Positions 202-47,526 of a DNA stretch of 64,000 nt are shown one piece after another. Made by a program: the position numbers and the translations under genes. Every line of letters begins with the position of its first letter. Position 1 is the first letter of the stretch. The stretch comes from Minisyncoccota bacterium (GTDB lineage: Bacteria > Patescibacteriota > Minisyncoccia > Phycocordibacterales > CAJQIN01), in the NCBI GenBank assembly GCA_905478465.1, contig CAJQIN010000012.1:32890-96889 (forward strand). Reading direction: 5' to 3'. The notes beneath the pieces were generated by a model, which saw nothing but the letters and a program-made list of their open reading frames with translations, ran no database searches and was not told the DNA's origin.

Positions 202-615
202 TTATCGCTTAGACCACTGTGGTGCTTTTCGAGCTTTCTTCAGACCGAACTTTCGTCGCTCTTTTGTTCTCTGGTCACGCTTAAGAAAACCAGCTTTTTT
301 AAGTTTACCTCTTAATTCAAGATCAAAAGCAACAAGTGCACGTGAGATACCGTGTCTAAGAGCTTCTGCTTGTGAGTGAGAACCTCCTCCTGATAAGTGT
401 GCTGTAACATCAAATAGTTCCTTTACCTCAGAAACAGAAAAAGCTTCTCTAGCTACTTTTGCAAGCTCAGGTGTTGGAAAATAATCTTCAATTTCACGAT
501 CATTTATTTTGAATGATGTTTTTTTAGCTCCTTTAAAAATACGAACTCGCGCAACCGATGTTTTGCGTCGTCCAACTGCTTCAATATATGTGTGTTCTGC
601 TGTTTTTGTTGCCAT
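202..615 (-). CDS. rpsI: 30S ribosomal protein S9
   Basis: 137-aa ORF. It has the conserved S9 C-terminus (GGGSHSQAEALRHGISRAL ... RDQRTKERRKFGLKKARKAPQWSKR). Confidence 0.93.
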   Translation of the reverse strand: MATKTAEHTYIEAVGRRKTSVARVRIFKGAKKTSFKINDREIEDYFPTPELAKVAREAFSVSEVKELFDVTAHLSGGGSHSQAEALRHGISRALVAFDLELRGKLKKAGFLKRDQRTKERRKFGLKKARKAPQWSKR

Positions 616-620
616 AATAA

Positions 621-968
621 TTATTCAGAAATAATAAGATTTTTCATCATACGAGCTCGTAGTCGATTAGTGGGAAGCATACCATAAACTGCTTTTCGTA
701 GTACTTCAGAGTATCCTTTTCGTGAAATCACTTGCTCCATTCGAGGTTGCTTCAAGCCACCTGGGTATCCTGAGTATTGTGAATATTTTTTCTGTACAAG
801 TTTCTTCTCGCTAATAGATGCTTTTGAAGCATTAGTAACTTCCACTTTCACATCGGGATATACATTAGGTTGATATTCTGGTAAATTTTTACCCATCAAA
901 ACAACCGCAATCTCCGTTGCTAGTCTTCCAATCTTTTTATCTGTTGCATCAAAGCTGTATGTTTTCAT
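621..968 (-). CDS. rplM: 50S ribosomal protein L13
   Basis: 115-aa ORF. L13-like sequence, and it sits immediately upstream of rpsI as in the conserved rplM-rpsI operon. Confidence 0.9.
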   Translation of the reverse strand: MKTYSFDATDKKIGRLATEIAVVLMGKNLPEYQPNVYPDVKVEVTNASKASISEKKLVQKKYSQYSGYPGGLKQPRMEQVISRKGYSEVLRKAVYGMLPTNRLRARMMKNLIISE

Positions 969-976
969 AAAAATTT

Positions 977-1324
977 CTATACAAATTCTATCTGTGCCAT
1001 TTTAGCGGCATCACTACGCTTAATATCAAGCTTGGTAATTCGAGTATATCCACCACTTCGACTCTTGTATTTAGGTGCAATATCTTCAACAAGTTTTTTT
1101 GTTGCAACTAAGCCAATACGTGAAGTAAGTATGCGACGTGCAGCAAGTGTATCTGCTTTTGCACGTGTTACAAGTTTTTCAATAACAGGCCGCATCTCTT
1201 TTGCCTTAGCTTCTGTTGTTTGAATCTTTTCGTGACTAATAAGTGACGATACGAGTGATTTCATAAGCGCTGTTCGTTGGTTTCTAACTCTGCCAAATTT
1301 TCTGTTTTTTTTGCTGTGGTTCAT
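977..1324 (-). CDS. rplQ: 50S ribosomal protein L17
   Basis: 115-aa ORF. L17 motifs are present (GRVRNQRTALMKSL, GGYTRI) and it follows rpoA as in the alpha operon. Confidence 0.9.
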   Translation of the reverse strand: MNHSKKNRKFGRVRNQRTALMKSLVSSLISHEKIQTTEAKAKEMRPVIEKLVTRAKADTLAARRILTSRIGLVATKKLVEDIAPKYKSRSGGYTRITKLDIKRSDAAKMAQIEFV

Positions 1325-1369
1325 AAAGGTGAAATGAAATACTACCTAATTTACTCTCTAAAGGCAAGC

Positions 1370-2329
1370 CTATTTTAGACTTACTTTTAACTCACTTAAT
1401 GCGGCCTTAATTTCTGTAATGCCCTTCTCACCTAGACCATCGATCTCTAGTAGATCATCTTCCTTTTTTCGGATAAGTCCTCCTATTGTACGAATATTGG
1501 CGTTTGTAAGAGCATTCTCTGTACGAGCTGATAGTTCTAGTGACTCAATACGAGTCTTGAGTATTTCTTGATCATCTTTAGAAAGTTCTTCACCCTCACT
1601 TGTTGGGATATCTGTGATAACTACCTCTGGCTCTTCTTCTTTAAAGCCGATAATAGCTTTAAGTTGACTGATCATTATCTCAATAGATTTTTCAAGTGCT
1701 TCTTTAGGAGCAACTGTTCCATTTGTTTCAATTCGAATTCGTAGACGGTTGAAATCTGTTCGATCTCCTACACGCATATTTTCAACCTCATAGTTTACAC
1801 GTTGAATAGGTGTGAATATGGCGTCCATAGCAATAGTCCCTATATCTACTTTTTCTTTCTGTAGAACATCTCTTTGTACAAAACCAATACCTTGCTGCAC
1901 TGTGATTTCCATATCAAGTTCCGCATTCTTATTTGTAAGGGTCGCAATAACCATATCATCATTCAAAATCTTCACTTGACCAGGAAGAGCTATGTCTTTT
2001 GCTGTAATGATTTGCTCTCCTTTTACTTTTAGAGTAAGTATTTGTGCTTCTGAGGTAAGCATTTGGATACTTAGTCTTTTAAGATTAAGTAAGATTGTGA
2101 TTACATCTTCTTTGATACCCTCGATAGTTGAAAACTCGTGATTTACACCAGTAATCTTAACAGAAGTAACCGCAGCACCCGGAAGAGACGACAAAATAAT
2201 TCGTCGAAGAGAGTTACCTAATGTGTGGCCGTATCCTGGATACAGACCATCTATTTCAAAAACTGCCTTGGAATCCTCTTCAAAAACAACTTTTGGTTTT
2301 GAAGGAAGTACGATGTCAAACTCGTGCAT
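1370..2329 (-). CDS. rpoA: DNA-directed RNA polymerase subunit alpha
   Basis: 319 aa with an N-terminal dimerisation domain (PGYGHTLGNSLRRIILSSLPGAAVTSVKI). It is positioned between rpsD and rplQ. Confidence 0.93.
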   Translation of the reverse strand: MHEFDIVLPSKPKVVFEEDSKAVFEIDGLYPGYGHTLGNSLRRIILSSLPGAAVTSVKITGVNHEFSTIEGIKEDVITILLNLKRLSIQMLTSEAQILTLKVKGEQIITAKDIALPGQVKILNDDMVIATLTNKNAELDMEITVQQGIGFVQRDVLQKEKVDIGTIAMDAIFTPIQRVNYEVENMRVGDRTDFNRLRIRIETNGTVAPKEALEKSIEIMISQLKAIIGFKEEEPEVVITDIPTSEGEELSKDDQEILKTRIESLELSARTENALTNANIRTIGGLIRKKEDDLLEIDGLGEKGITEIKAALSELKVSLK

Positions 2330-2395
2330 ACAAATGAATGGATTAAAAAATAACTTATAAATTATACTTCAAAATTTGTACAATAGCAACTAATG

Positions 2396-3004
2396 TTACC
2401 TACTGTAAAACTCTAGAACAGCATCTAAATTGAAAAGAAGGTCTTGAGCGGTAAGTTTTGGTGACCCCTGTACGGTAATTTTTCTTTTAGTAATATCCGA
2501 CTTCAGCCATGCTGGTGCTGTGTAGTTTTTCATTTTCTCTTCAATATCAGTAAAAAAACCTTTCTGGACACTTCCTTCTTTTACGGTAAGTTCATCCCCC
2601 TCCTTTACTTTATGGGAAGGAACATCGATCTTTTTTCCTGCGGAAAGAATATGTCCATGAGATACCATCTGACGTGCTGCTCGACGCGTAGGAGCGAATC
2701 CAGCACGGTACACAACGTTATCAAGGCGTGTTTCAAGTTTTGCAAACAAGACTTCTGTTTTCTCTGTATTTTTATCTTTCATTGTTTCCTCAACATAATT
2801 TGAGAATTGTCTTTCTGAAATACCATAAGTAAAACGAGCCTTCTGCTTTTCATTCATCTGATTTGCAAAATCTGTTTTAGCTCGTTGAAATTTACGAGTT
2901 TTACTTCTTCGTGCTTCAGAAGCTGCAAATTTTTGAGTTTGAGTTTTCTCAAAAATTGGTGCCCCTAGGCGTCGTGCTAATTTATATAATGGTCTTGCTT
3001 TCAT
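2396..3004 (-). CDS. rpsD: 30S ribosomal protein S4
   Basis: 202 aa. S4 N-terminus (ARPLYKLARRLG) and an S4 RNA-binding domain. Confidence 0.92.
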   Translation of the reverse strand: MKARPLYKLARRLGAPIFEKTQTQKFAASEARRSKTRKFQRAKTDFANQMNEKQKARFTYGISERQFSNYVEETMKDKNTEKTEVLFAKLETRLDNVVYRAGFAPTRRAARQMVSHGHILSAGKKIDVPSHKVKEGDELTVKEGSVQKGFFTDIEEKMKNYTAPAWLKSDITKRKITVQGSPKLTAQDLLFNLDAVLEFYSR

Positions 3005-3029
3005 TTCTAATTTTAAATTATAGTACCTA

Positions 3030-3461
3030 TTAGACTCTTCGTGGTTTTTTTGCTCGAGGACCGTTGTGCGGTACCGGTGTCACATCTTTAATATTTAAAA
3101 TATTAATTCCTTTTGATGTAAAGCCTCGAATGGCTGACTCTCTTCCAGAACCAACACCACTTACCACCACTTTTACATCCTTAACACCAAAAGCAGCAGC
3201 TCTTTCACCAACGGTTTCTCCGACCTTTGCAGCGGCAAAAGGTGTACCCTTTTTAGCCCCTTTAAATCCAAGAGAACCACTAGATGACCAAGCTAAAGTA
3301 CCTCCTGCAGTATCAGTAAATACGGCTTTGGTATTATTGTATGTGGCATGTACAAAAAATATACCGAGCGCATGCTTCTTTTTTCCAACTTTTGACGTCT
3401 TCTGCGCACGACTATTGTCGAACTCTCCTCCTGATTTTGTTGCAATTCTTTTCTTACCCAT
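3030..3461 (-). CDS. rpsK: 30S ribosomal protein S11
   Basis: 143 aa. S11 signature (HATYNNTKAVFTDTAGGTLAWSSSG ... RGFTSKGINI). Confidence 0.92.
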   Translation of the reverse strand: MGKKRIATKSGGEFDNSRAQKTSKVGKKKHALGIFFVHATYNNTKAVFTDTAGGTLAWSSSGSLGFKGAKKGTPFAAAKVGETVGERAAAFGVKDVKVVVSGVGSGRESAIRGFTSKGINILNIKDVTPVPHNGPRAKKPRRV

Positions 3462-3481
3462 AATATTACATTAATATAAAA

Positions 3482-3862
3482 CTATTTTTTATCAACTGCT
3501 CTACGTCCTGTACCCATGGTCTTTCGTGTGTTTCCGCGTCGAGTACGTGAATTTGTTTTTGTTCGCTGTCCTCGCGAAGGAAGACCTACAGAATGTCTCT
3601 TTCCTCGGTACGTCTGAATGTCTCTTAATCTCTTTATGTTACCTGAAACTTCTCGTTTTAAGTCACCCTCTATAACAAGTTTCTCTACTTCTTTTCGGAT
3701 AAGGGCCTCTTCTTCAGTAGTAAGTTCCTTTGCCTTTCTTCCTGAATCAATTTTAACTGATTTCAAAATCTCAAGAGCCAAAGGTCGTCCTACACCATAA
3801 ATAGCAGTGAGGCTGATCTCTAATCTTTTTTCATCTGGAATTGTAATACCTTCTATACGCAT
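3482..3862 (-). CDS. rpsM: 30S ribosomal protein S13
   Basis: 126 aa. S13 N-terminus (MRIEGITIPDEKRLEISLTAIYGVG) and a basic C-terminus. Confidence 0.92.
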   Translation of the reverse strand: MRIEGITIPDEKRLEISLTAIYGVGRPLALEILKSVKIDSGRKAKELTTEEEALIRKEVEKLVIEGDLKREVSGNIKRLRDIQTYRGKRHSVGLPSRGQRTKTNSRTRRGNTRKTMGTGRRAVDKK

Positions 3863-12882: not shown

Positions 12883-13857
12883 TTACCAAATATATAAAGC
12901 TTTCTTTTCTTTGTGTTCTGCAAAAGTTTGTGAATAATGCACAAAACCATCAGAATCAGCAAGGAAAAACAAATATGGAGATTCTTTTGGGTGTAATGTA
13001 GCTAAAATTGCATCTAAACTTGGATTAGAAATGGGCGTAGGAGGCAATCCTTTGTGTACATACGTATTATATGGAGAATCATTTTTTAAATCTTCTAAAG
13101 TTAAATCTGCGGTAGTTTTGCCATTCAAGTATCGAAAAGTAACATCAACCTGAAGCGGCATTCCGATTTTAAGACGTTTCCATAAAATACCTGCAACATA
13201 CTGCCGATCTTCTGTACTTGAAGCTTCAGCCTCAACAATAGAGGCCAGTATTATAATATCTTCTATGGATTTTTCAGATTTCTGAACATCCTCCTGAAGA
13301 GAATTTATTTTTTTATAAAAAGTATCTTCTAAAATCTGCGCGACGACATCTGCAGTACTCGAGGGTAAAAAGTAATACGTATCAGGAAATAAGTAACCTT
13401 CTTTATCCTGTGTAATTTCTAAAAAAACATCTACATCAAAATTCGGCAAATTTTCTGCAAGAATTTCTGCAACATCTACACGACTTAACCCTTCAGGAAT
13501 AGTAACTCTTACAGACACCTGACCAAGATCTCCCCTCAGAAGTCTCACTGCCACATCGTAGACACTTTCAGGAGTATCAAAATAATATGTTCCAGCCTGT
13601 ATCCCACTCTCTCCACGAAGTAAGATTATTATTTTTGATAATATAAATGCTGAACGAATAATACCCTTCTCCTTCAGAAGAATAGCTGTTGTCTGTGCCG
13701 TTTTACCGTTCTCAATAGAAACGAGAGTATTATCTGGAAAATTAACAGGTGCTGAAATACAAAGACTGTATAACATACCAAGAATAATCAATATGCTAGC
13801 AATATAAGCTAATATATGATGAAAATATGTGCGTAAAAAAGATTCTGTATTAGACAT
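12883..13857 (-). CDS. mltG: Endolytic murein transglycosylase, YceG/MltG family
   Basis: N-terminal transmembrane helix and YceG signatures (GYLFPDTYYF, PTPISNPSLDAI). Confidence 0.8.
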   Translation of the reverse strand: MSNTESFLRTYFHHILAYIASILIILGMLYSLCISAPVNFPDNTLVSIENGKTAQTTAILLKEKGIIRSAFILSKIIILLRGESGIQAGTYYFDTPESVYDVAVRLLRGDLGQVSVRVTIPEGLSRVDVAEILAENLPNFDVDVFLEITQDKEGYLFPDTYYFLPSSTADVVAQILEDTFYKKINSLQEDVQKSEKSIEDIIILASIVEAEASSTEDRQYVAGILWKRLKIGMPLQVDVTFRYLNGKTTADLTLEDLKNDSPYNTYVHKGLPPTPISNPSLDAILATLHPKESPYLFFLADSDGFVHYSQTFAEHKEKKALYIW

Positions 13858-15053
13858 TATATAGGAAGATTTGCTGGTGGTTCTGCTTTTTTAGAAGGAA
13901 TACGAACAAAAGTAGGTGTCTGTACAGCAATACCACTGACCGGACGAAAAATTGTAGCTAACTCTTCTGTAGTTAAAATAAAAGGTTTTTGTTGAAAGTA
14001 CTTATATGGCTCTTGATGAAAAGAACGAAGTTTGTATGCCTCCAAATACTGACGTTCTATGGCATTTCGGCGCATACGTCTGAAATCTTGCCAAGGATAG
14101 TCAAAATCTGTAAAATTACCTAACTTAAAACCATTAAGGGTATTAGAGCCGTATTGTCTAAATGTTCCTATCAGACCAGGAATATTGTCAGCGTTAAAGG
14201 CATCTCCTTCAGCAATATAAGCACCTCGGATAGCAGTATCAAAAGCCGGTTTTGATAGACTTCTCTCGAGCGCTACAATAGCATCTTGTTCTCCTTTTGT
14301 TTGAGGACGCGGGAACTTACCCTCACCTGGACTAAATTCTTCTAAGATATTTTTTATTTCAGTTTTCACGCCTAGTTTCCAATCATCTTTTTTAAACAAA
14401 CGACCCTCTTTCAACCACTCATCTCTGTTGGCCTGAATTAGAATCTGTATCCAACACTGCTCACCTTTTTTCAAGGAACCCAGATACTCAAGCACAGCAG
14501 TCATGGGATCAATCTTACTCTCCTCTTCTTGATCCTTATCAAGCCCATAATCAATATATGTTTTTATAGGATATGCATCAGCTTTTGCAAGCCTAAAATT
14601 TGTTATCCACATTCCCCATTTTGAACTATTAGACACATGAGGTGTATAGTCTTCAACTTCATACAATTCAATATTGGGATATTGGGCATATAACTGATGT
14701 TCAATCATTCCTCTAAATTTTTGAAATGTCCAAATATAAAAATGAACTTCTCCACCAAGAGACACTAATTCTAGAGAAAACCAAGGGGGAACCTTTCCTG
14801 TAATGTATGTATCTATATAAGTAGCAGATCCTTTTTGATATAGAGCACTCAAAAAAATCTCCATAGCAAGTGGTGATTTGATTATTTCTTTTGGCATCTT
14901 TATTTCAAGTAAAACTTTCTTCTGTTTAGAGATAAAAGATTGACGAACATATCTCAACCACACAGGAAAAAAAGAAAATACCAATAAAACGGGAAGCCAC
15001 ACAAAAGATGTTTTATAAAGAAGCGCTAGAGCATCCAAAAATATATCAAACAT
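13857..15053 (-). CDS. Hypothetical membrane-anchored protein. It overlaps mltG by one base (ATGA).
   Basis: 398-aa ORF. N-terminal hydrophobic helices. No family recognised. Confidence 0.45.
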   Translation of the reverse strand: MFDIFLDALALLYKTSFVWLPVLLVFSFFPVWLRYVRQSFISKQKKVLLEIKMPKEIIKSPLAMEIFLSALYQKGSATYIDTYITGKVPPWFSLELVSLGGEVHFYIWTFQKFRGMIEHQLYAQYPNIELYEVEDYTPHVSNSSKWGMWITNFRLAKADAYPIKTYIDYGLDKDQEEESKIDPMTAVLEYLGSLKKGEQCWIQILIQANRDEWLKEGRLFKKDDWKLGVKTEIKNILEEFSPGEGKFPRPQTKGEQDAIVALERSLSKPAFDTAIRGAYIAEGDAFNADNIPGLIGTFRQYGSNTLNGFKLGNFTDFDYPWQDFRRMRRNAIERQYLEAYKLRSFHQEPYKYFQQKPFILTTEELATIFRPVSGIAVQTPTFVRIPSKKAEPPANLPI

Positions 15054-15117
15054 ACCTATATATTATAGCGCAATAAAAAACATCCTGCATAAATGCAGGA
15101 TGTTTTTCTGTGAAAAA

Positions 15118-16164
15118 CTATTTAGCAACAGAGTATTTTCCATCCTTATTTCGCTTGAAGTAATTCTGATTTTGAAGGTTAACAAAAATAGTATTCTCCT
15201 TAACATACCTCTCTTTTAGCACCTTATCCACAATTTCTTCTCGAGTAAGCGGTCCTTCTTTTTTAAGAATATTTTGAATAACATCTTTTACAACACCACT
15301 CATATATCCCCACTCACTAAGAGCATACAGTCCCCGACCAACCAAAACAAATCTTGGGTCTTTAATTAGTTCATTGTGTGTAGTAGCCTCGTGTGCTTTT
15401 TTGTTAAAAATTTCAGAAATTGACTTAGCTACTTCTCTAAAATGAATTGGGGATCCGTGTCTTCTTATAACAAGAAATGCGTAATCTCTAATACCCTTAG
15501 CGTTAATATTTGGAGAATCAGATCTTCCCCATTCATTTAAAGGATTCTTATCTATTTTCTTTGATAGACTAAGCCACCTCTTGATAACTTCTTCATTTTT
15601 ATATTTCTCAGAAATATCCTTAATGTGTTCCAAAAAATCATTAATCATTTCTGATTCTGAGACAATATCATCATCACTTAAACCTGAGTATAACTTTTCA
15701 AGAGTGCTGTGAATAGTTTTTGATATTCCCTCATCAACATTCCAACGGTGCTTATAACTATCATTCTCTTTCTCCATAGCAAACGGATTTCCAATTACTA
15801 GCAAAAAATGTAAATGATTTTTTGTACTTGCTTCATTTGTGATAGTCTCCAGTAAATCTTCTTCAGAAACAATAGCACCAATGTTCTCTATATGCTTCTT
15901 AAGCTCTTCGAAAATAATTTCTTCTTTTTCATATGCCCCAGACTTTCTAATAGTGTTAAGAGAGTGATTTTCAATTTGTCGCACACGCTCACGTGTAATA
16001 CCATATTTTTTACCAATAGACTCCAGAGTCAAGCGTTGTGTACTTGTTCCAAGCCCGTATCGTCCCGTAATAACATCCTTTGCTCGATCATTTAGTACAG
16101 AAAGAAGGCGTTTAGTTACTTGTTTGGGTTTGAAAGATATAGTTGCTATTGTTTTTTTTGCCAT
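15118..16164 (-). CDS. Protein with an N-terminal sigma-70 region-4 HTH and a C-terminal HARE-HTH-like domain
   Basis: The N-terminus (GRYGLGTSTQRLTLESIGKKYGITRERVRQIENHSL) matches sigma-70 region 4.2. The C-terminus (HFREVAKSISEIF ... DPRFVLVGRGLYALSEWGY) resembles the HARE-HTH of the RpoE delta subunit. Confidence 0.5.
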   Translation of the reverse strand: MAKKTIATISFKPKQVTKRLLSVLNDRAKDVITGRYGLGTSTQRLTLESIGKKYGITRERVRQIENHSLNTIRKSGAYEKEEIIFEELKKHIENIGAIVSEEDLLETITNEASTKNHLHFLLVIGNPFAMEKENDSYKHRWNVDEGISKTIHSTLEKLYSGLSDDDIVSESEMINDFLEHIKDISEKYKNEEVIKRWLSLSKKIDKNPLNEWGRSDSPNINAKGIRDYAFLVIRRHGSPIHFREVAKSISEIFNKKAHEATTHNELIKDPRFVLVGRGLYALSEWGYMSGVVKDVIQNILKKEGPLTREEIVDKVLKERYVKENTIFVNLQNQNYFKRNKDGKYSVAK

Positions 16165-16220: not shown

Positions 16221-19079
16221 TCAGACTTTTGTGTCTGTTGCAAAGCTGACTAACCTGTCAGGAATAAATTTCTTTAATTCGTATGATGCACTGATCCAAC
16301 GAAAAATTTCTTCTGTTTCTTTAATTTTTTGTACCACATCACCCTCAGTACTACCAACTGGAACCCGAATGGTCCCCCTCATTTTTCCATCAACCTGAAC
16401 TGCAATTGTTGTCTCAGCATCCATGATCTTCTCATGATCATACTTAGGCCAACTCTGCACATGAATAGATTCTGATCCTGCTACTACTTTCGACCACAAT
16501 TCTTCAGCAAGATAAGGAGCGAAAGGTGCCAGAATTTTTAAAGTCATCTGATACTGTTCTTTTGTTAAAGACTTAGTCTTCTCAACATGATTTAAGAATA
16601 TCATCATGGCAGAAATAGCAGTGTTAAATTTGAACTCAGACATATCACTGGTTACTTTTTTTAACATTTTGTGCAACTCTTTTTCCACACGCTCAGAAAC
16701 ACCCTCTTTTTCTATATAAGCTTCAAGTCCACACAGACGCTCTAAAAATCTTCGTATACCAGCAATACCCCCCATATCCCAGGGATACGATCCTGCCTCT
16801 CCGTACGGTCCAATAAAAGCCAAATACATACGCACAACATCTGCTCCCACCTTTTCTACCATTGCATCTGGATCCACGACGTTACCCTTAGACTTACTCA
16901 TTTTTTGTCCATCAGGACCCATAATAAGACCTCTATTGATACGCTTTCTGAAAGGTTCCATTTCTGCAACAGCACCAATATCAAAAAGTACTTTTTGTAA
17001 GAAACGAGAATAAAGCAAATGAAGTGTGGTATGTTCTGATCCTCCAAAATATTGCCCAACAGGCATCCATGCTTTCTGTGCTTCTAGCGAGGAAATAGAT
17101 TCCTTATTATGTACATCAATATACCTAAGAAAATACCAAGATGAATCAATAAAAGTATCCATCGTTTCAACTTCCGGAGTCCATCCTTTTCCAAAAATAT
17201 CTTCTGTATTCTTCTTTAACATCTCAGACTTATCCAAGGGCGCCTTGCCTGTCGGCGTAAAGTCAACATCTTCTGGTAGAATCCATGGTAAATGTTCCTC
17301 CGGAACAGCATGTGGTTTTCCATCAGGATCGAAAACAATAGGAATTGGAGTACCCCAATATCTCTGACGTCCTATGGACCAATCCCTAAGCTTAAATGTA
17401 GTCTTCAAATTTCCATTAACCTTTTCCGTTATACTCTTTTGAACCTCTGTTGAGAGACTACCGTCAAATTCTCCAGAGTTTATAAGTATCCCTTCTCCTG
17501 TATACGCGTGTCTTTCTACACTAAAAAACTCTTGAATATGCGGAAGTTCAGAGACAGGATTAAAATCCCTAAAATTATCAATAGGTACCCAGACAACATC
17601 ATGTAGACCCTTCTCTTCCTGGGTAATTTCATCTTTTTCTAGATCTCTTAGTTCAATATAAAATACTTGAGAAAAAGCTTTTCGATTAACATCCTTATGA
17701 GCCACATAAAAACGTGATTCCATTTGCCACCCAATTCTCTCTATTTTTCCAACATTTTTATACCCAGTCTCTTCTTGTACTTCACGCAAAACAGCATCTT
17801 CATAACTCTCTCCCTCTTCAACACCACCAATAACAAAAGTTTTCCAAGGCTGTTGCTTCCATTGAATTTGAATTATTCTGTCTTCCGTTGGGTGCTTAAC
17901 AATGACTTGAACATTACGTCTCGGAGAAATATCCTTACCTTCCAAAGGAGGATTATCTTTATCTACAAAAATTGGTGCAATAACTTGCACAACAGGGAGG
18001 TTGAACTTTTCTGCAAACTCAAAATCACGCTGATCATGTGCTGGTACAGCCATTACCGCGCCTGTACCATATCCTCCAAGAACATAATCGGATACAAACA
18101 CAGGAATCTCCATATTATTTGCTGGATTAATAGCGGTAATCCCTTCAAGTAATACGCCAGTTTTTTCTTTTTGATTAGCTTGACGCTCGAGTTCACTTTT
18201 TTTGATAGATTTTTGAACATATTTCCGAACCTCTTCTTTATTCTTTATTCTTGATTTATTTTCACTAAGCGCTGAATCAATAAGCTCATGCTCTGGAGCC
18301 ACCACAAGATACGTCACTCCAAAAAGAGTATCTGCTCGCGTCGTAAATACAGATATATTTTCTATAGTATCTTCTGTTATAAAATTAATAAGAGAACCCT
18401 CCGATCTTCCAATCCAATTTCTCTGCTGTTCTTTTATTTGTTCTGGCCAATCAAGATCATCAAGGTCATTTAATAACCTTTCCGCATAATCTGTAATTTT
18501 TAACATCCACTGTTTCTGTTTTCTTTTTTCTATCTCCGTACCACATCGTTCACATTTTCCATCTACCACCTGTTCATTAGCTAAAACAGTTTTACACGAC
18601 GAACACCAGTTTACTGTCGTCTCCGCTTTATACGCCAAACCTTTCTCAAACATTTTAGTAAAAATCCACTGGGTCCATTTGTAATACTTAGGATCAGATG
18701 TGCGAAGTTCTCTAGACCAATCAAACATAGTTCCCATTGATTGAAGTTGCATCTTCATGTAATCAATATTGCCATATGTCCATTTTTTTGGATCAAGTCC
18801 GTGTTTTATGGCTGCATTTTCCGCAGGAAGCCCGAAAGAATCGAAACCGATAGGATACAAAACATTCTTCCCCTGCATACGCATAAAGCGTGCATATATA
18901 TCTGGAATAGCAAAAGCATACCAATGTCCAATATGGAGATTTCCTGATGGATACGGAAATTCAACTAGTGTGTAGAAATTTTCTGCACCTTCTTTTTTTT
19001 GCGGTGTTTCGTAAAGCTTATCCTCTATCCACTTATTTTTCCATTTTTTCTCTATTTCTTTATGGTCGTATTCTTTCAT
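16221..19079 (-). CDS. leuS: Leucyl-tRNA synthetase carrying an inserted Nudix hydrolase domain of about 150 aa
   Basis: Class I motifs HIGH (NLHIGHWY) and KMSKS. ZN-1 (CSSCKTV ... CERCG), TRADTLFG and AVMAVPAHDQRDFEFAEKFNLPV are all present. Between that segment and GILINSGEFDG sits a Nudix fold with a canonical Nudix box (GGVEEGESYEDAVLREVQEETGY). I placed the start at MKEYDHKEIEKKWKNKW. The ORF track extends it to 19127. Confidence 0.88.
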   Translation of the reverse strand: MKEYDHKEIEKKWKNKWIEDKLYETPQKKEGAENFYTLVEFPYPSGNLHIGHWYAFAIPDIYARFMRMQGKNVLYPIGFDSFGLPAENAAIKHGLDPKKWTYGNIDYMKMQLQSMGTMFDWSRELRTSDPKYYKWTQWIFTKMFEKGLAYKAETTVNWCSSCKTVLANEQVVDGKCERCGTEIEKRKQKQWMLKITDYAERLLNDLDDLDWPEQIKEQQRNWIGRSEGSLINFITEDTIENISVFTTRADTLFGVTYLVVAPEHELIDSALSENKSRIKNKEEVRKYVQKSIKKSELERQANQKEKTGVLLEGITAINPANNMEIPVFVSDYVLGGYGTGAVMAVPAHDQRDFEFAEKFNLPVVQVIAPIFVDKDNPPLEGKDISPRRNVQVIVKHPTEDRIIQIQWKQQPWKTFVIGGVEEGESYEDAVLREVQEETGYKNVGKIERIGWQMESRFYVAHKDVNRKAFSQVFYIELRDLEKDEITQEEKGLHDVVWVPIDNFRDFNPVSELPHIQEFFSVERHAYTGEGILINSGEFDGSLSTEVQKSITEKVNGNLKTTFKLRDWSIGRQRYWGTPIPIVFDPDGKPHAVPEEHLPWILPEDVDFTPTGKAPLDKSEMLKKNTEDIFGKGWTPEVETMDTFIDSSWYFLRYIDVHNKESISSLEAQKAWMPVGQYFGGSEHTTLHLLYSRFLQKVLFDIGAVAEMEPFRKRINRGLIMGPDGQKMSKSKGNVVDPDAMVEKVGADVVRMYLAFIGPYGEAGSYPWDMGGIAGIRRFLERLCGLEAYIEKEGVSERVEKELHKMLKKVTSDMSEFKFNTAISAMMIFLNHVEKTKSLTKEQYQMTLKILAPFAPYLAEELWSKVVAGSESIHVQSWPKYDHEKIMDAETTIAVQVDGKMRGTIRVPVGSTEGDVVQKIKETEEIFRWISASYELKKFIPDRLVSFATDTKV

Positions 19080-19128
19080 GATGTGATGCATTGTAACATT
19101 TTTTTTAAAAGCCAAAACCCCCACCAAA

Positions 19129-19151
19129 AAACCACCCCTCCAGGGTGGTTT
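19129..19151 (-). terminator. Rho-independent terminator-like hairpin downstream of surface-protein gene copy A
   Basis: AAACCACCC-CTCCA-GGGTGGTTT. On the minus strand it is followed by a U-rich tract. Confidence 0.5.
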
Positions 19152-19164
19152 CCATCTCCCAACA

Positions 19165-22107
19165 CAATCCCAATTATTGTTCTTGGAATTCAGGATTCAC
19201 AGTAATCTCAAAGGGTTCAGTCTCACAGGAGTCTGTAAGTCCTTCAGTATTAGTCACAGTTACCTTTGCATTCTTGGTTCCGGTGGTTAGGAACTTCAAG
19301 GTTTGTGTTTGGTCACTGAGGTTCTGTGGTGTATATAGATTTTCATCTATTATCTCCCATTCATATGATAATCCAGTGGTTTCTCCGGTGACTACAACAG
19401 TGAGATCCATATCTTGATTCACGTAGTGAGGAGATGTGGGTTCTGCGGGTCCACAAGATCCAATATCGAAGTTACCTGTCTCTGGTGGATCTGTGGGATC
19501 AGGGTCGGTGTCAGTATCAGTATCTGATGGATCAAGATTTGAAACGGTAATGGTTTCAGAATCCATGATCTTTTGTCCATCAGGTCCGAAACAGAGATAA
19601 TAGAAAGTGGTGTTTTCTGTGATTGGACTTGAGGTTTGTGAACCAGCTACGTTTGGTGTTATTTCTTTGTAGAAAAGCTGTAATGGTGTGTAATCTGAGG
19701 TACTCCAGTTATTGTTTGCAGGATCTGAGACAGCTCCACAACTACTTGCACCTGATGAATTCCAATCAAGATCTACGGTCTCTCCTGAAGAGACAAGGTT
19801 TCGATCAACAGATAGATCAATGATGGGTAATGGTTGGAGGACGGTGACGGTTTTTTCATCAGTTACAGTGGTTCCGTCTAATCCATCACATGTAATGGTG
19901 TATGTGGTGGTACGTGTTGGTGATACTACTTTATTTCCACTTTTGATGTTGTCGGTCCAACCGTATGTGGGGGTGATTGGTATGAGTGTTAGGTCACCGA
20001 TAATAGGCATTCCTATTATCGATGGATATACCCCTGTTGTCATTACGGGTCCAACGAAATTATTATCTACCGGTACTGATACGGTTGGTATATCTGCTAA
20101 TGTTGTACTCTTTAGAGTACCGGTACAACTTGAAACATTCTCTGATGACCACTCAAGGGTTGATGAGTTTCCTCGGTCTATGGTTTCGGGTGTGATGGTG
20201 AGAGAGACGGTGGGTGCGGCGGGTTTGGTGACGGTGTATGAGTTGGAGAGGGTGCCGTAAAACAAATAAGGATCGTCTCTATAAAAAGCAATGCTTCCAT
20301 CTCGATATTTAACATATCCTAAAAATGACCAGTCTGTCGCATCTGACAAGACATACCGACTTGTTTCTTCAAAAAAATTTGCTTGCATTTCATCAAAGTC
20401 AGGTACAATAATAGTCTTAATATTAGCTACAGCAGTTCCACCTCTTCCAACAGTAGCGTCATAATCTTCTGTAGTCACGATAGCGTCTTTACTGTATCTA
20501 GAATAAGACCATTCACTAGGTTTAGATTTCATAAGCCTTAGAAGATCAGGAACATAAGCATAAATCCAACCCGAAGGATCAATAATATATACAGAAGAAT
20601 TAGAGGAACTTCTTATCATGCTATCTATTTGTTCTTCTCTGCGCTCTTCAGTAAACAAAGTAGCGTAAGCAAATCCCTGATTTCCACAAGTGTGTAACCA
20701 AATACTAATAGTTTCGATAAGCTCCTCCCCAACCTCAAAACTATCCTTATTTAAAGAGGTTGTAATGTGCACATGATGTGACACACTCAAATACGTCGCC
20801 GCCTCCACCTCCTGCCCAAACATCCCACCAACCACAATAAGTCCCACAAAAAGCATCATCATCGGAGTTGTACTTGATCGCTTCTTCAAAAGATAACCAA
20901 GACCCAACAGAATAACAATCAAAGCGATAATTGACAGAAGAATGGTTGTAATATTCCCTCCTGTATCTGTTTTTGGTGTCTGGACTTCTCGGGTTGCAAG
21001 AATACCTGAGTCATCAGCTACGGTAGTCATGATAGTTGGAGCAGTACAGTTTCGAGTGACCTCGAAAGTATACGTTCCGGTAACATCAACTTCTGGATCA
21101 ACTGATACTGTCTGGGTATCAGCACAAGAGTTGTTGTTGGCATCAACTAGAGCAATGGTCAGGGTTGGATTTGAAAGAGGGGTTGAGGTAGCTAATGATC
21201 CTGGATATGAATCAGCAGATCCTGACCAGAAGACTTCCACAGTAGCGGTGTCCCCCTTCTGGTATGAGGTTTGATCTGGGGTGACGTTTTGAATGGTGGC
21301 CGAGTTTCCTCTGATGACATAGTGAGGAGTAATTTCATTTGAGACAGTATTGTCATTTTGGAGGGTAATGATGGTGTCATATGCCTGTGGAGCCTGTGGC
21401 AGATGCATAGTGATGTCTAGGGTTTTGGTTTGATTTGACTCCAGAGTGTATGTGTCTGTACTAGTGTATGTCTCAATCACTGGACCTGAGATAGTACGTT
21501 CGTGTGTAATGAAATGTGGTGAGAGTGTTTGTGGGTCTTTTGTACTGTTTGTGACCTCACATGAGAGGATTAGGGTGTCAGTGGCTTCAAGGTCGATACC
21601 TTGGAAGATAGTATATGTCTCATTGTTGTATGTGAACAAACAAGAAGCGGTATCAATAGCAACATACTCTCCTGTTCCTTGGAGAGTGATTGTCTGTACT
21701 GGTACTTGAGAGAAACGAAGACCTGAACTGTTTTCAGATATCATCCAGATTTCGTGTTCTCCTTGGAGGTATGTGGGTGGTGTGTATGTAACTGTTTTGG
21801 TGACACGATCTCCTTCATTGAGAGCTACGATATCATCGAATACTTTGATGTCTGCTGTTTCTCCTGTTTCTGAGTTAATGAGAACAATACTGTAACGGAT
21901 ATCTGATTGATAGTTGAACTTGTTGACGATGTCGAAGTCTAGAGTATATGTATTCTCAGTTCCATTGAAATATGTTATTTCTGCATTATATATACTGACA
22001 TCTGCTACCAAGGTGAGGTCTGATGTATCAACGGGTATTTCTTCTTGCGCGAAGAGTGGGGTGATGATGAGGAGTGAAAGAAGAGAGAGAAAGGTGAGTT
22101 TTTTCAT
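19165..22107. repeat. Direct repeat copy 1, 2,943 bp, 100% identical to 44470..47412
   Basis: All ORF-track ORFs on both strands are identical at a constant offset of 25,305 bp. Read directly, identity starts at CAATCCCAATTATTG, just 3' of the stop, and ends exactly at the ATG. Confidence 0.9.
19174..22107 (-). CDS. Large secreted two-ectodomain surface protein, copy A. Order of parts: signal peptide, ectodomain 1, transmembrane hairpin, ectodomain 2 with Ig/PKD-like repeats.
   Basis: 977 aa. Signal peptide MKKLTFLSLLSLLIITPLFAQ. Transmembrane helix ITTILLSIIALIVILLGLGYLL, then a short loop KKRSSTTP, then a second hydrophobic segment MMMLFVGLIVVGGMF. C-terminal repeats of the form ...TL(E/D)W(S/N)S...SSC(T/G). 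D/T/P-rich linker DPSDTDTDTDPDPTDPPETG. Confidence 0.7.
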   Translation of the reverse strand: MKKLTFLSLLSLLIITPLFAQEEIPVDTSDLTLVADVSIYNAEITYFNGTENTYTLDFDIVNKFNYQSDIRYSIVLINSETGETADIKVFDDIVALNEGDRVTKTVTYTPPTYLQGEHEIWMISENSSGLRFSQVPVQTITLQGTGEYVAIDTASCLFTYNNETYTIFQGIDLEATDTLILSCEVTNSTKDPQTLSPHFITHERTISGPVIETYTSTDTYTLESNQTKTLDITMHLPQAPQAYDTIITLQNDNTVSNEITPHYVIRGNSATIQNVTPDQTSYQKGDTATVEVFWSGSADSYPGSLATSTPLSNPTLTIALVDANNNSCADTQTVSVDPEVDVTGTYTFEVTRNCTAPTIMTTVADDSGILATREVQTPKTDTGGNITTILLSIIALIVILLGLGYLLKKRSSTTPMMMLFVGLIVVGGMFGQEVEAATYLSVSHHVHITTSLNKDSFEVGEELIETISIWLHTCGNQGFAYATLFTEERREEQIDSMIRSSSNSSVYIIDPSGWIYAYVPDLLRLMKSKPSEWSYSRYSKDAIVTTEDYDATVGRGGTAVANIKTIIVPDFDEMQANFFEETSRYVLSDATDWSFLGYVKYRDGSIAFYRDDPYLFYGTLSNSYTVTKPAAPTVSLTITPETIDRGNSSTLEWSSENVSSCTGTLKSTTLADIPTVSVPVDNNFVGPVMTTGVYPSIIGMPIIGDLTLIPITPTYGWTDNIKSGNKVVSPTRTTTYTITCDGLDGTTVTDEKTVTVLQPLPIIDLSVDRNLVSSGETVDLDWNSSGASSCGAVSDPANNNWSTSDYTPLQLFYKEITPNVAGSQTSSPITENTTFYYLCFGPDGQKIMDSETITVSNLDPSDTDTDTDPDPTDPPETGNFDIGSCGPAEPTSPHYVNQDMDLTVVVTGETTGLSYEWEIIDENLYTPQNLSDQTQTLKFLTTGTKNAKVTVTNTEGLTDSCETEPFEITVNPEFQEQ

Positions 22108-44090: not shown

Positions 44091-44469
44091 ACCCACCCTC
44101 TGAACTAATCCAAAGGTACTGATGGAATATTATCTGGAAGAAACACACTTGCGGTTAAGCTACTCGGCTCCTCCAAAACACTTTGTGTAACTTCAAAGAA
44201 CGCTACGAGGGTATTCTCAAGACCAGAAAAAACTGCTGGCATTAAGAACTTGATAGTAATTAGTATCATGATCAGACACAATGCGCTGAATAATTTCATA
44301 TATTCATGTGCCTGAGAAAGATGTTACTGTATTCGGACAAGAATACAGCGTGAACTAATTGTTCACTACCCCTCTCTTCTCTTTAATCAATAGAATTTAA
44401 TTAATGAAAGAAAAGAGAGGATTAGCTTCTCTATTCTAATTTAAATTATAATCTATTTTACTAATATGT

Positions 44470-47412
44470 CAATCCCAATTATTGTTCTTGGAATTCAGGA
44501 TTCACAGTAATCTCAAAGGGTTCAGTCTCACAGGAGTCTGTAAGTCCTTCAGTATTAGTCACAGTTACCTTTGCATTCTTGGTTCCGGTGGTTAGGAACT
44601 TCAAGGTTTGTGTTTGGTCACTGAGGTTCTGTGGTGTATATAGATTTTCATCTATTATCTCCCATTCATATGATAATCCAGTGGTTTCTCCGGTGACTAC
44701 AACAGTGAGATCCATATCTTGATTCACGTAGTGAGGAGATGTGGGTTCTGCGGGTCCACAAGATCCAATATCGAAGTTACCTGTCTCTGGTGGATCTGTG
44801 GGATCAGGGTCGGTGTCAGTATCAGTATCTGATGGATCAAGATTTGAAACGGTAATGGTTTCAGAATCCATGATCTTTTGTCCATCAGGTCCGAAACAGA
44901 GATAATAGAAAGTGGTGTTTTCTGTGATTGGACTTGAGGTTTGTGAACCAGCTACGTTTGGTGTTATTTCTTTGTAGAAAAGCTGTAATGGTGTGTAATC
45001 TGAGGTACTCCAGTTATTGTTTGCAGGATCTGAGACAGCTCCACAACTACTTGCACCTGATGAATTCCAATCAAGATCTACGGTCTCTCCTGAAGAGACA
45101 AGGTTTCGATCAACAGATAGATCAATGATGGGTAATGGTTGGAGGACGGTGACGGTTTTTTCATCAGTTACAGTGGTTCCGTCTAATCCATCACATGTAA
45201 TGGTGTATGTGGTGGTACGTGTTGGTGATACTACTTTATTTCCACTTTTGATGTTGTCGGTCCAACCGTATGTGGGGGTGATTGGTATGAGTGTTAGGTC
45301 ACCGATAATAGGCATTCCTATTATCGATGGATATACCCCTGTTGTCATTACGGGTCCAACGAAATTATTATCTACCGGTACTGATACGGTTGGTATATCT
45401 GCTAATGTTGTACTCTTTAGAGTACCGGTACAACTTGAAACATTCTCTGATGACCACTCAAGGGTTGATGAGTTTCCTCGGTCTATGGTTTCGGGTGTGA
45501 TGGTGAGAGAGACGGTGGGTGCGGCGGGTTTGGTGACGGTGTATGAGTTGGAGAGGGTGCCGTAAAACAAATAAGGATCGTCTCTATAAAAAGCAATGCT
45601 TCCATCTCGATATTTAACATATCCTAAAAATGACCAGTCTGTCGCATCTGACAAGACATACCGACTTGTTTCTTCAAAAAAATTTGCTTGCATTTCATCA
45701 AAGTCAGGTACAATAATAGTCTTAATATTAGCTACAGCAGTTCCACCTCTTCCAACAGTAGCGTCATAATCTTCTGTAGTCACGATAGCGTCTTTACTGT
45801 ATCTAGAATAAGACCATTCACTAGGTTTAGATTTCATAAGCCTTAGAAGATCAGGAACATAAGCATAAATCCAACCCGAAGGATCAATAATATATACAGA
45901 AGAATTAGAGGAACTTCTTATCATGCTATCTATTTGTTCTTCTCTGCGCTCTTCAGTAAACAAAGTAGCGTAAGCAAATCCCTGATTTCCACAAGTGTGT
46001 AACCAAATACTAATAGTTTCGATAAGCTCCTCCCCAACCTCAAAACTATCCTTATTTAAAGAGGTTGTAATGTGCACATGATGTGACACACTCAAATACG
46101 TCGCCGCCTCCACCTCCTGCCCAAACATCCCACCAACCACAATAAGTCCCACAAAAAGCATCATCATCGGAGTTGTACTTGATCGCTTCTTCAAAAGATA
46201 ACCAAGACCCAACAGAATAACAATCAAAGCGATAATTGACAGAAGAATGGTTGTAATATTCCCTCCTGTATCTGTTTTTGGTGTCTGGACTTCTCGGGTT
46301 GCAAGAATACCTGAGTCATCAGCTACGGTAGTCATGATAGTTGGAGCAGTACAGTTTCGAGTGACCTCGAAAGTATACGTTCCGGTAACATCAACTTCTG
46401 GATCAACTGATACTGTCTGGGTATCAGCACAAGAGTTGTTGTTGGCATCAACTAGAGCAATGGTCAGGGTTGGATTTGAAAGAGGGGTTGAGGTAGCTAA
46501 TGATCCTGGATATGAATCAGCAGATCCTGACCAGAAGACTTCCACAGTAGCGGTGTCCCCCTTCTGGTATGAGGTTTGATCTGGGGTGACGTTTTGAATG
46601 GTGGCCGAGTTTCCTCTGATGACATAGTGAGGAGTAATTTCATTTGAGACAGTATTGTCATTTTGGAGGGTAATGATGGTGTCATATGCCTGTGGAGCCT
46701 GTGGCAGATGCATAGTGATGTCTAGGGTTTTGGTTTGATTTGACTCCAGAGTGTATGTGTCTGTACTAGTGTATGTCTCAATCACTGGACCTGAGATAGT
46801 ACGTTCGTGTGTAATGAAATGTGGTGAGAGTGTTTGTGGGTCTTTTGTACTGTTTGTGACCTCACATGAGAGGATTAGGGTGTCAGTGGCTTCAAGGTCG
46901 ATACCTTGGAAGATAGTATATGTCTCATTGTTGTATGTGAACAAACAAGAAGCGGTATCAATAGCAACATACTCTCCTGTTCCTTGGAGAGTGATTGTCT
47001 GTACTGGTACTTGAGAGAAACGAAGACCTGAACTGTTTTCAGATATCATCCAGATTTCGTGTTCTCCTTGGAGGTATGTGGGTGGTGTGTATGTAACTGT
47101 TTTGGTGACACGATCTCCTTCATTGAGAGCTACGATATCATCGAATACTTTGATGTCTGCTGTTTCTCCTGTTTCTGAGTTAATGAGAACAATACTGTAA
47201 CGGATATCTGATTGATAGTTGAACTTGTTGACGATGTCGAAGTCTAGAGTATATGTATTCTCAGTTCCATTGAAATATGTTATTTCTGCATTATATATAC
47301 TGACATCTGCTACCAAGGTGAGGTCTGATGTATCAACGGGTATTTCTTCTTGCGCGAAGAGTGGGGTGATGATGAGGAGTGAAAGAAGAGAGAGAAAGGT
47401 GAGTTTTTTCAT
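44470..47412. repeat. Direct repeat copy 2, 2,943 bp, identical to 19165..22107
   Basis: See copy 1. Confidence 0.9.
44479..47412 (-). CDS. Large secreted two-ectodomain surface protein, copy B. It is 100% identical to copy A.
   Basis: Identical 977-aa translation. It is divergent from the plus-strand exonuclease gene and lacks the copy-A promoter sequence. Confidence 0.7.
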   Translation of the reverse strand: MKKLTFLSLLSLLIITPLFAQEEIPVDTSDLTLVADVSIYNAEITYFNGTENTYTLDFDIVNKFNYQSDIRYSIVLINSETGETADIKVFDDIVALNEGDRVTKTVTYTPPTYLQGEHEIWMISENSSGLRFSQVPVQTITLQGTGEYVAIDTASCLFTYNNETYTIFQGIDLEATDTLILSCEVTNSTKDPQTLSPHFITHERTISGPVIETYTSTDTYTLESNQTKTLDITMHLPQAPQAYDTIITLQNDNTVSNEITPHYVIRGNSATIQNVTPDQTSYQKGDTATVEVFWSGSADSYPGSLATSTPLSNPTLTIALVDANNNSCADTQTVSVDPEVDVTGTYTFEVTRNCTAPTIMTTVADDSGILATREVQTPKTDTGGNITTILLSIIALIVILLGLGYLLKKRSSTTPMMMLFVGLIVVGGMFGQEVEAATYLSVSHHVHITTSLNKDSFEVGEELIETISIWLHTCGNQGFAYATLFTEERREEQIDSMIRSSSNSSVYIIDPSGWIYAYVPDLLRLMKSKPSEWSYSRYSKDAIVTTEDYDATVGRGGTAVANIKTIIVPDFDEMQANFFEETSRYVLSDATDWSFLGYVKYRDGSIAFYRDDPYLFYGTLSNSYTVTKPAAPTVSLTITPETIDRGNSSTLEWSSENVSSCTGTLKSTTLADIPTVSVPVDNNFVGPVMTTGVYPSIIGMPIIGDLTLIPITPTYGWTDNIKSGNKVVSPTRTTTYTITCDGLDGTTVTDEKTVTVLQPLPIIDLSVDRNLVSSGETVDLDWNSSGASSCGAVSDPANNNWSTSDYTPLQLFYKEITPNVAGSQTSSPITENTTFYYLCFGPDGQKIMDSETITVSNLDPSDTDTDTDPDPTDPPETGNFDIGSCGPAEPTSPHYVNQDMDLTVVVTGETTGLSYEWEIIDENLYTPQNLSDQTQTLKFLTTGTKNAKVTVTNTEGLTDSCETEPFEITVNPEFQEQ

Positions 47413-47526
47413 GGGTGAATGTTTAATGGTGATAATGTTGAAATTATACCACTAATAAGTTACAAACTAAAAAAATTCTGTATAATTTTATAAACTTGCA
47501 CTAGACAACATGCTACAATATTTATT

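Follow-up and report, generated by a model that had tools for sequence, protein, structure and literature searches.

The gene studied here lies on the minus strand at positions 19174..22107 of a 64,000-nucleotide stretch of a Minisyncoccota bacterium contig (CAJQIN010000012.1, positions 32,890 to 96,889), referred to as the window. It is an ATG-started open reading frame (ORF) of 977 amino acids (aa) plus a stop codon, and we put at about 70% the probability that its product is a precursor of two exported halves joined by a hairpin, the second helix of which would be a cleavable internal signal peptide. Sequence comparisons place the gene in a large, unnamed surface-protein family of the Patescibacteria, or candidate phyla radiation (CPR), throughout which this architecture appears to be the rule, and not a one-off fusion.

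Hydropathy (19-residue Kyte-Doolittle window) identifies three hydrophobic segments, one at the N-terminus, one with window starts at aa ~381-393 (peak 2.95), termed TM1, and a second segment at aa ~412-416 (peak 1.76). The layout of the first of two copies of the gene is given below, where a slash marks a predicted cleavage site. The original prediction for this stretch had described a signal peptide, an ectodomain, a transmembrane helix, a KKRSSTTP loop and a second helix, all of which were right to within a few residues, and its linker rich in D, T and P is borne out by translation. The second ectodomain also exists, at a measured 541 aa (aa 437-977) rather than the 560 or so expected.

19174..22107, minus strand: whole ORF, copy 1, 977 aa; identical sequence on the independent 7.9-kb scaffold L054
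22045..22107, minus strand: N-terminal Sec-type signal peptide, aa 1-21 (MKKLTFLSLLSLLIITPLFA/QEE), predicted from sequence and hydropathy
20968..22044, minus strand: ectodomain 1, aa 22-380, the family-defining module (AlphaFold2 and profile search)
20887..20952, minus strand: TM1, aa 386-407 (I386-L407; ITTILLSIIALIVILLGLGYLL), predicted stop-transfer anchor of ectodomain 1 (hydropathy and family conservation)
20863..20886, minus strand: basic loop, aa 408-415 (KKRSSTTP), predicted cytoplasmic from its sequence
20800..20862, minus strand: second hydrophobic segment, putative internal signal peptide, aa 416-436 (MMMLFVGLIVVGGMF GQEVEA/A; motif statistics and split genomes)
20233..20799, minus strand: first domain of ectodomain 2, aa 437-625 (alignments)
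19837..20232, minus strand: Ig-like repeat 1, aa 626-757, with an insertion of ~50 aa (CPR-repeat profile)
19537..19833, minus strand: Ig-like repeat 2, aa 759-857 (CPR-repeat profile)
19474..19533, minus strand: acidic D/T/P linker, aa 859-878 (DPSDTDTDTDPDPTDPPETG; translation)
19177..19473, minus strand: C-terminal domain, aa 879-977, weakly PKD-like (Pfam scan and tail motif)

The hairpin and the putative internal signal peptide

In the model that we favour, the N-terminal signal peptide would direct ectodomain 1 through Sec, TM1 would halt transfer, the short basic loop would remain cytoplasmic, and the second hydrophobic segment would restart translocation as an internal signal peptide, so that ectodomain 2 would be exported as well. 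Signal peptidase I would then most likely cut after VEA436. The products would be a membrane-anchored base consisting of ectodomain 1 and the hairpin, and a free ectodomain 2, in which variable Ig-like domains separate a conserved first domain from a conserved C-terminal tail. We predict that both halves are located outside the cell, where they may associate. Some genomes encode the two halves in overlapping, translationally coupled genes, of which the fused gene is the more usual counterpart.

To look at the hairpin across relatives we searched a profile of ectodomain 1, with the hairpin left out, against 1.84 billion cluster representatives (clusters at 50% identity); as the hairpin was absent from the query, its occurrence in the matches is an independent observation. 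When considering the 150 best representatives, 120 have two clear hydrophobic segments and a long tail, in another 13 the second segment is weaker and falls below the threshold used, and 13 terminate shortly after TM1, meaning that the hairpin is kept in ~89%. Counts of loops, motifs and tails refer to the 120 with two clear segments. The loop is net positive in 118 of these, with a median of 9 aa and 4 K/R; by the positive-inside rule such a basic loop stays cytoplasmic. The second segment ends in a strict A-x-A in 87 of the 120, compared to 16.7% of control windows from the same proteins, and nearly all of the remainder have [V/S/T/G]-x-A. The family consensus is a hydrophobic core with GG, G or P at -6, A at -3, K at -2 and A at -1, followed by D-T-F, and c-regions of signal peptidase I substrates canonically have such a -3/-1 pattern.

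The equivalent sequence here is V-E-A/A-T-Y, with the predicted signal peptidase I site after A436. The hydrophobic segment proper has 15 residues (M416-F430) and is followed by GQEVEA/ATY. Judged by rule (basic n-region, h-region of 7-15 residues, small uncharged residues at -3 and -1), aa 408-436 have the makings of a Sec-type signal peptide, with KKR as n-region, MMMLFVGLIVVGGMF as h-region and GQEVEA as c-region. Cleavage at the predicted site would be expected to give the semi-tryptic peptide ATYLSVSHHVHITTSLNK, with A437 at its N-terminus.

The same two segments and short basic loop could also form a permanent helical hairpin, the second segment being an uncleaved transmembrane helix and both ectodomains remaining tethered on one polypeptide. 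The topology would equal that of the cleaved model, and the conserved GG in the second helix could serve helix packing. We nevertheless regard this as unlikely, as an uncleaved anchor needs no small-residue motif at -3/-1, and the motif and the helix breaker at -6 are conserved in nearly all of the 120 relatives; in addition the core has only ~15 residues here, and in genomes where the gene is split the motif sits in a bona fide N-terminal signal peptide.

The split genes, which provide the best evidence that the second helix is a signal peptide, were found in three genomes (L012, L026 and L047). In each, gene A stops after TM1 and a basic tail, and gene B overlaps its stop codon, the overlap being ATGA in L026 and L047 and ATGCATAG in L012. 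Gene B starts with M-(basic)-(hydrophobic), then AQA/DTF, VRA/DTI or ANA/KTF, and its signal peptide leads into an LNLDKSxYxPGE domain, as at the start of the fused ectodomain 2. Read from these sequences, the second helix of the split versions corresponds to the N-terminal signal peptide of a translationally coupled downstream gene, and since it is carried in that position, the fused gene amounts to a fusion of two secreted-protein genes. The original prediction had offered two possibilities, an in-frame fusion of two secreted proteins or a helical hairpin that places both large domains outside the cell; the family-wide hairpin and the three split genomes support both, which turn out to be one and the same.

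A related picture emerges from the closest relative (L064, from TARA Oceans and related assemblies), which has 59% identity over aa 224-399 and aligns colinearly with ectodomain 2 at 31%. Its reading frame is interrupted (540-600) by a frameshift, present as the same sequence in three assemblies (L064, L065 and L066), at a run of nine A residues (A9) inside a lysine-rich KKK loop, and one added A restores …LKKKRSSSLVVLLFVALSVGFFTSVDTVEA/ATW. Rather than an error, the run may mark a site that is prone to slippage and perhaps phase-variable. Fused and split forms appear from these comparisons to interconvert easily, which would be sensible only if both yield the same exported products.

A split at the same loop might also suggest that the fusion itself is an artefact, in which a sequencing or assembly error merged two adjacent genes, and the A9 frameshift does show the junction to be prone to error or slippage in some lineages. 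This is scarcely credible for the gene studied here, given that its junction contains no homopolymer (AAG AAG CGA TCA AGT), that the window holds two identical copies, that the same sequence occurs in independent assemblies from several samples, and that ~89% of the 150 best representatives are fused.

Methionine is enriched ~4-fold at the start of the second segment in fused relatives, which fits former or alternative start codons. Ectodomain 2 could accordingly be made separately by internal translation from the three consecutive ATGs that encode aa 416-418 (MMM), and it is at the equivalent point that the split genes start. We think this very unlikely: no Shine-Dalgarno-like sequence precedes these ATGs, the enrichment could equally be a relic of former start codons, and an internal start would add to full-length translation and not replace it.

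Several observations weigh against the precursor model and the surface role attached to it. The residue at -3 is Val in this protein, which is allowed, and not the family-consensus Ala, and with its 15-residue hydrophobic core the second segment might escape cleavage and remain a transmembrane helix. The AlphaFold2 model of ectodomain 2 is of low confidence overall (predicted local distance difference test, pLDDT, 51.6), with its first domain below 50. Scans of Pfam and NCBIfam with the whole protein and with seven segments returned just one match, to PKD and below threshold, and searches of PDB sequences with the protein and with the ectodomain 1 profile returned none. Gene neighbourhoods across 51 loci from species-representative genomes contain nothing conserved, the largest neighbour family being present in 5 loci. 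Lastly, an attachment or host-interaction role for a tandem Ig-like CPR surface protein, which the original prediction had proposed and which is plausible, is argued by analogy.

The protein family and its domains

Ectodomain 1 consists of three beta-sandwich (Ig-like) domains, at aa ~37-143, 149-265 and 271-376. AlphaFold2, using an alignment of 33 sequences, gives a confident all-beta model of this three-domain arrangement (pLDDT 93.2, predicted template modelling score 0.88), and comparison of the model with known structures gave no specific structural relative, only a generic likeness to tandem FN3/Ig arrays of adhesins and matrix proteins. Five full-length relatives (P0001-P0005), which share the layout of this protein at 27-36% identity, came from a word-indexed search; the three-domain N-terminal module of ~350 aa matches them with E-values of 5e-66 to 1e-35, and its invariant motifs PQAYD, GxSATIQNV and WSGSA are all present here. 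An N-terminal signal peptide is present in every homologue examined.

The search for homologues recovered a large family. At E<=1e-3 the ectodomain 1 profile matches 1,972 cluster representatives, of which 1,000 also pass E<=1e-30. Species-representative genomes yield 51 loci, with a best identity of 38%, and almost all of these carry a Patescibacteria/CPR label (Parcu-/Paceibacteria, Moran-, Nomura-, Lloyd- and Kaiserbacteria), while a few are labelled Bdellovibrionales, Acidobacteriota or just "bacterium". At least 6 of the genomes behind these loci carry two diverged paralogues. As neighbours are not conserved, genomic context gives no clue to function. Literature searches covering the family, internal signal peptides in bacteria and the C-terminal motif turned up no specific report.

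One recurring gene pair was seen near family members, a Sigma70_r4/HARE-HTH protein together with a protein of ~400 aa, at 13857-16164 (minus strand) in the window and at L001:202-4390. The ~400-aa protein is a DUF8128 member in L001, and its counterpart in the window has no Pfam match at E<=1e-3. The pair was not seen in the other loci.

Ectodomain 2 begins with a conserved stretch, TSLNKDSFEVGEEL at aa 449-462, which matches the family sequence …LNLDKSxYxPGE…. The following ~140 aa (aa ~476-616) are lineage-specific, and this first domain has no Pfam match. Then come two Ig-like repeats, for which AlphaFold2 predicts confident strands. They are copies of a repeat of ~88 aa that is common in CPR secreted proteins (consensus PTVSLxAxPxxIxxGxSSTLxWSSxNAxSC…TTYTLxCxG). 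A hidden Markov model (HMM) of the repeat, built from other CPR proteins (P0176, P0177, P0180 and P0181), matches repeat 1 in two parts, at aa 626-669 (E 3.6e-14) and 720-757 (E 1.9e-10), and repeat 2 (aa 759-857) at E 5.3e-12. BLAST did not detect these internal repeats, which are found only with the profile.

The original prediction had described two Ig/PKD-like repeats in the C-terminal part. The repeats are real Ig-like copies, confirmed by the CPR-repeat HMM; the PKD likeness (PF00801/PF18911, E 3.4e-4) belongs to the last domain, at aa ~893-959/968, and the repeats themselves have no Pfam match of any kind. PKD is the best Pfam match of the last ~100 aa and the only one from any part of the protein, at 21.0 bits compared to a gathering threshold of 23.5, and 20.8 compared to 27.

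The C-terminal tail carries a motif of its own. A hydrophobic-x-E pattern lies within the last 8 aa in 89 of the 120 relatives (74%), compared to 3.3% of control windows, typically as W-K/R-E-V-x-P or P-x-F/Y-x-E-x. The protein studied here ends in …VNPEFQEQ-COOH (19177-19194). An unrelated CPR repeat protein, P0176, ends in WIEVAP, and since it shares the tail, the tail may be a general and undescribed CPR sorting or docking signal, as suggested by these sequences. Neither literature on the motif nor an NCBIfam model of it was found.

Two identical copies and a codon-usage mosaic

The original prediction of a duplicated protein proved exact, and both copies are backed by independent assemblies. 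Positions 19165-22107 are identical to 44470-47412 (100% over 2,943 bp), and the identity begins precisely at the ATG and stops 9 nucleotides (nt) beyond the stop codon. The exact 977-aa protein is found in public marine metagenome assemblies. The independent 7.9-kb scaffold L054 covers copy 1 in one piece, running from YchF through the gene to leucyl-tRNA synthetase (LeuRS). Five contigs from the RNase T side extend 1.7-2.0 kb into copy 2, and the 3' junction of copy 2 is crossed by one independent contig. All independent contigs agree with the window at 99.9-100% identity, which establishes that the fused reading frame and the two copies are genuine and rules out an assembly artefact as the source of the duplication. 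The second copy and the elements flanking the two are as follows.

44470..47412, minus strand: second copy (ORF 44479-47412), identical over 2,943 bp; junctions in L053 and L058-L062
22142..22150, minus strand: extended -10-like box TGTTATAAT, 34 nt 5' of the copy 1 ATG (consensus match only)
47443..47451, minus strand: extended -10-like box TGGTATAAT, 30 nt 5' of the copy 2 ATG (from sequence; apart from the boxes, the flanks are unrelated)
19126..19150, minus strand: terminator-like hairpin ACCACCC-TGGAG-GGGTGGT then TTTTT, downstream of copy 1 only (from sequence)

The flanks of the two copies have no significant homology (62 of 500 shuffles score equally well), and each copy has its own TGnTATAAT box 30-34 nt before the ATG. 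The box of copy 1 was not reported by a scan that also demands a -35 element, and the terminator-like hairpin of copy 1 is absent from the output of the same scan. The duplicate may have arisen by a recent ORF-precise duplication or by complete gene conversion between old paralogues. No silent donor cassettes or partial gene copies were found elsewhere in the window. Directly downstream of copy 2 lies a 64-aa ORF (44105-44299, minus strand) with a hydrophobic N-terminus, a raised fraction of C at third codon positions (C3; 0.31) and a strong terminator-like hairpin after it.

Base composition varies along the gene. The original prediction had noted GC-richer ends around an AT-rich centre, and the sliding GC profile is indeed not flat, with 0.42-0.47 at both gene ends and 0.35-0.37 at 20300-20800; the window as a whole has 0.364. 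GC at third codon positions (GC3) is 0.379 for aa 1-380, 0.266 for aa 437-620 and 0.347 for aa 621-977. The value for 42 other ORFs is 0.246 +/- 0.026, and amino-acid content alone predicts ~0.23; as GC3 exceeds this expectation, the anomaly is not just one of amino-acid composition. A fit of two change points to C3/(C3+T3), where T3 is the corresponding value for T, gives the three segments listed below, with a log-likelihood gain (2dLL) of 57.7, which 0 of 300 permutations reach (permutation maximum 24.4). The right-hand boundary, ~20260, is where it had been placed, and the left-hand one lies at ~21129 rather than at 20940.

21130..22107, minus strand: codon segment 1, aa 1-326; C3/(C3+T3) 0.53; fourfold sites A.42, C.27, G.05, T.27
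20260..21129, minus strand: codon segment 2, aa 327-616; C3/(C3+T3) 0.17; fourfold sites A.30, C.08, G.15, T.47
19177..20259, minus strand: codon segment 3, aa 617-977; C3/(C3+T3) 0.49; fourfold sites A.45, C.29, G.03, T.23
Other minus-strand genes: fourfold sites A.33, C.07, G.13, T.47
Ribosomal-protein genes in the window: fourfold sites A.44, C.08, G.07, T.42
Plus-strand genes: fourfold sites A.42, C.16, G.04, T.38

The change affects particular codons. C-ending codons are enriched over T-ending ones (ACC, GTC, CTC, ATC, AAC, TTC, GAC and TAC), along with TCA and CCA, and G-ending codons are depleted, with no general GC shift. For GC3 and C3 fraction the outer parts of the gene fall outside the range of all 42 other ORFs, and they differ from the ribosomal-protein genes as well; segment 2 is indistinguishable from other minus-strand genes at fourfold sites.

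Such a pattern could be explained by horizontal transfer or recombination, with aa 1-326 and 617-977 coming from another lineage and only the centre being native. The two highly significant change points and the host-like centre agree with this, and a C3 excess over neighbouring genes is not systematic among homologues in 36 other genomes, so that an effect of this strength is particular to this lineage. An excess of C- and A-ending codons with a loss of G-ending ones is not what would be expected from a GC-richer donor, and neither donor-like sequence nor a silent cassette was found in the window. Moreover L064 shows the second of the two breaks too, at the position that corresponds to the start of Ig repeat 1, despite only 31-59% protein identity and synonymous sites that are presumably saturated; its composition is host-like upstream of the break and near-identical downstream (fourfold sites A.43, C.26, G.04, T.27). 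In 40 family members from other genomes C-ending codons show a small but significant dip, their fraction being lower by 0.03-0.07 between TM1 and +180 codons (p = 0.005, 0.03 and 2e-5). The composition is atypical, as horizontal acquisition would have it, and the pattern recurs in L064 and, weakly, across the family. We consider the imported origin of the exposed domains, which the original prediction had favoured, to be rather unlikely.

As the pattern outlasts saturated synonymous sites, a continuing cause is indicated rather than a recent import, and the mosaic most likely reflects a persistent region-specific constraint on codon choice. A- and C-ending codons form Watson-Crick pairs with UNN and GNN anticodons. 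One reading is that efficient decoding is selected in the outer parts of the gene, around an unselected or slow zone at the hairpin. This explanation is weakened by the ribosomal-protein genes, the C3 fraction of which is 0.16-0.24. High expression was rejected as the cause of the bias, as the ribosomal-protein and rpoA genes (202-3862) have no preference for C-ending codons. Strand bias was also rejected: the gene lies on the majority strand, and plus-strand genes lean the same way but far less (C.16 compared to.27-.29 at fourfold sites).

Strong strand asymmetry at synonymous sites is seen throughout the window, with T>A and G>C in minus-strand genes and the reverse in the few plus-strand genes. 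Nearly all genes are on the minus strand, and there is a single tRNA. Antisense ORFs of 87-182 aa lie inside the gene (19712-20260, 20942-21274, 21446-21709 and 19145-19417, plus strand), mostly within segments with a C-rich coding strand, and are probably by-products of the skewed composition and not genes.

Two other genes in the window have unusual features. LeuRS (16221-19127, minus strand) contains a NUDIX hydrolase insert at aa 404-519, just past the editing domain (Pfam PF00293, E 3e-14; Nudix box GVEEGESYEDAVLREVQEETGY). The product of the gene at 60664-62079 (minus strand) is a secreted protein in which a peptidoglycan-binding domain (PF01471) is accompanied by many degenerate acidic repeats of 42 nt (family D1), arranged in a long array.

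Comparison with known systems and possible role

The best parallels for the proposed processing are viral glycoprotein polyproteins, for instance flavivirus prM-E-NS1 and bunyavirus Gn/Gc, in which internal signal peptides are cut by the host signal peptidase. The shared scheme is one precursor with a stop-transfer helix and an internal signal with a -3/-1 site, giving two exported products. In contrast to the protein studied here, the viral systems belong to the eukaryotic ER (endoplasmic reticulum) and to viruses, and there is no relation in sequence or fold; cleavage is predicted in our case. A bacterial example is the cytochrome b-c1 precursor encoded by fbcH of Bradyrhizobium japonicum, which is reportedly split at an internal signal-peptide-like sequence. 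It is a precedent from bacteria for the production of two membrane or periplasmic proteins from one gene by means of an internal signal sequence, but it encodes part of a respiratory complex and is unrelated in sequence, whereas here split and fused forms coexist across a large family.

Among surface and matrix proteins with tandem Ig-like or FN3 domains, such as RbmA of V. cholerae and adhesin repeats, no match covers the three-domain arrangement of ectodomain 1. They share no sequence similarity with it, and the hairpin and internal signal are not found in them. Nor does this protein have an LPXTG or other known anchor: the sequence preceding TM1 (…EVQTPKTDTGGN) contains no LPXTG-like motif, and the helix is internal and not C-terminal.

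A further comparison is with the Pam pili (PamA/PamB) of CPR, built of Sec-exported, abundant surface proteins of Ig-like fold that are implicated in host contact; the pilins are two-domain subunits of 39-55 kDa, which assemble by donor-strand exchange, are encoded in a conserved operon, and occur mainly in Saccharimonadia and Microgenomatia (bioRxiv 10.64898/2026.03.03.709456). The protein studied here is likewise a CPR-specific, Ig-like surface protein with predicted Sec export. By their description Pam pilins are set apart from it by size, taxon, architecture and operon context (the pam operon includes chaperone-like genes), and no hairpin or internal signal is described for them.

The most far-reaching view of these results, which we hold to be quite doubtful, would have the precursor cut twice, into an anchored conserved base and a fast-evolving distal part that is held to it non-covalently. 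The assembly would be the main host-contact or coat structure of Paceibacteria-type CPR cells and a bacterial counterpart of viral glycoprotein polyproteins. Ordinary, slowly decoded codons around the hairpin, flanked by A- and C-ending codons with Watson-Crick decoding, would pace hairpin insertion and the second start of translocation.

CPR bacteria, or Patescibacteria, are thought to live attached to other cells, and few of their surface proteins have been characterised. The analysis defines a very large family (~2,000 clusters at 50% identity) for which no Pfam or NCBIfam model, solved relative or paper was found. To our knowledge, internal processing by signal peptidase into two exported proteins has rarely been documented in bacteria; the family gains a concrete model of biogenesis, for which its split and fused forms are a natural experiment. 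The persistent discontinuity of codon usage within the gene also bears on calls of horizontal transfer that are based on composition in these genomes.

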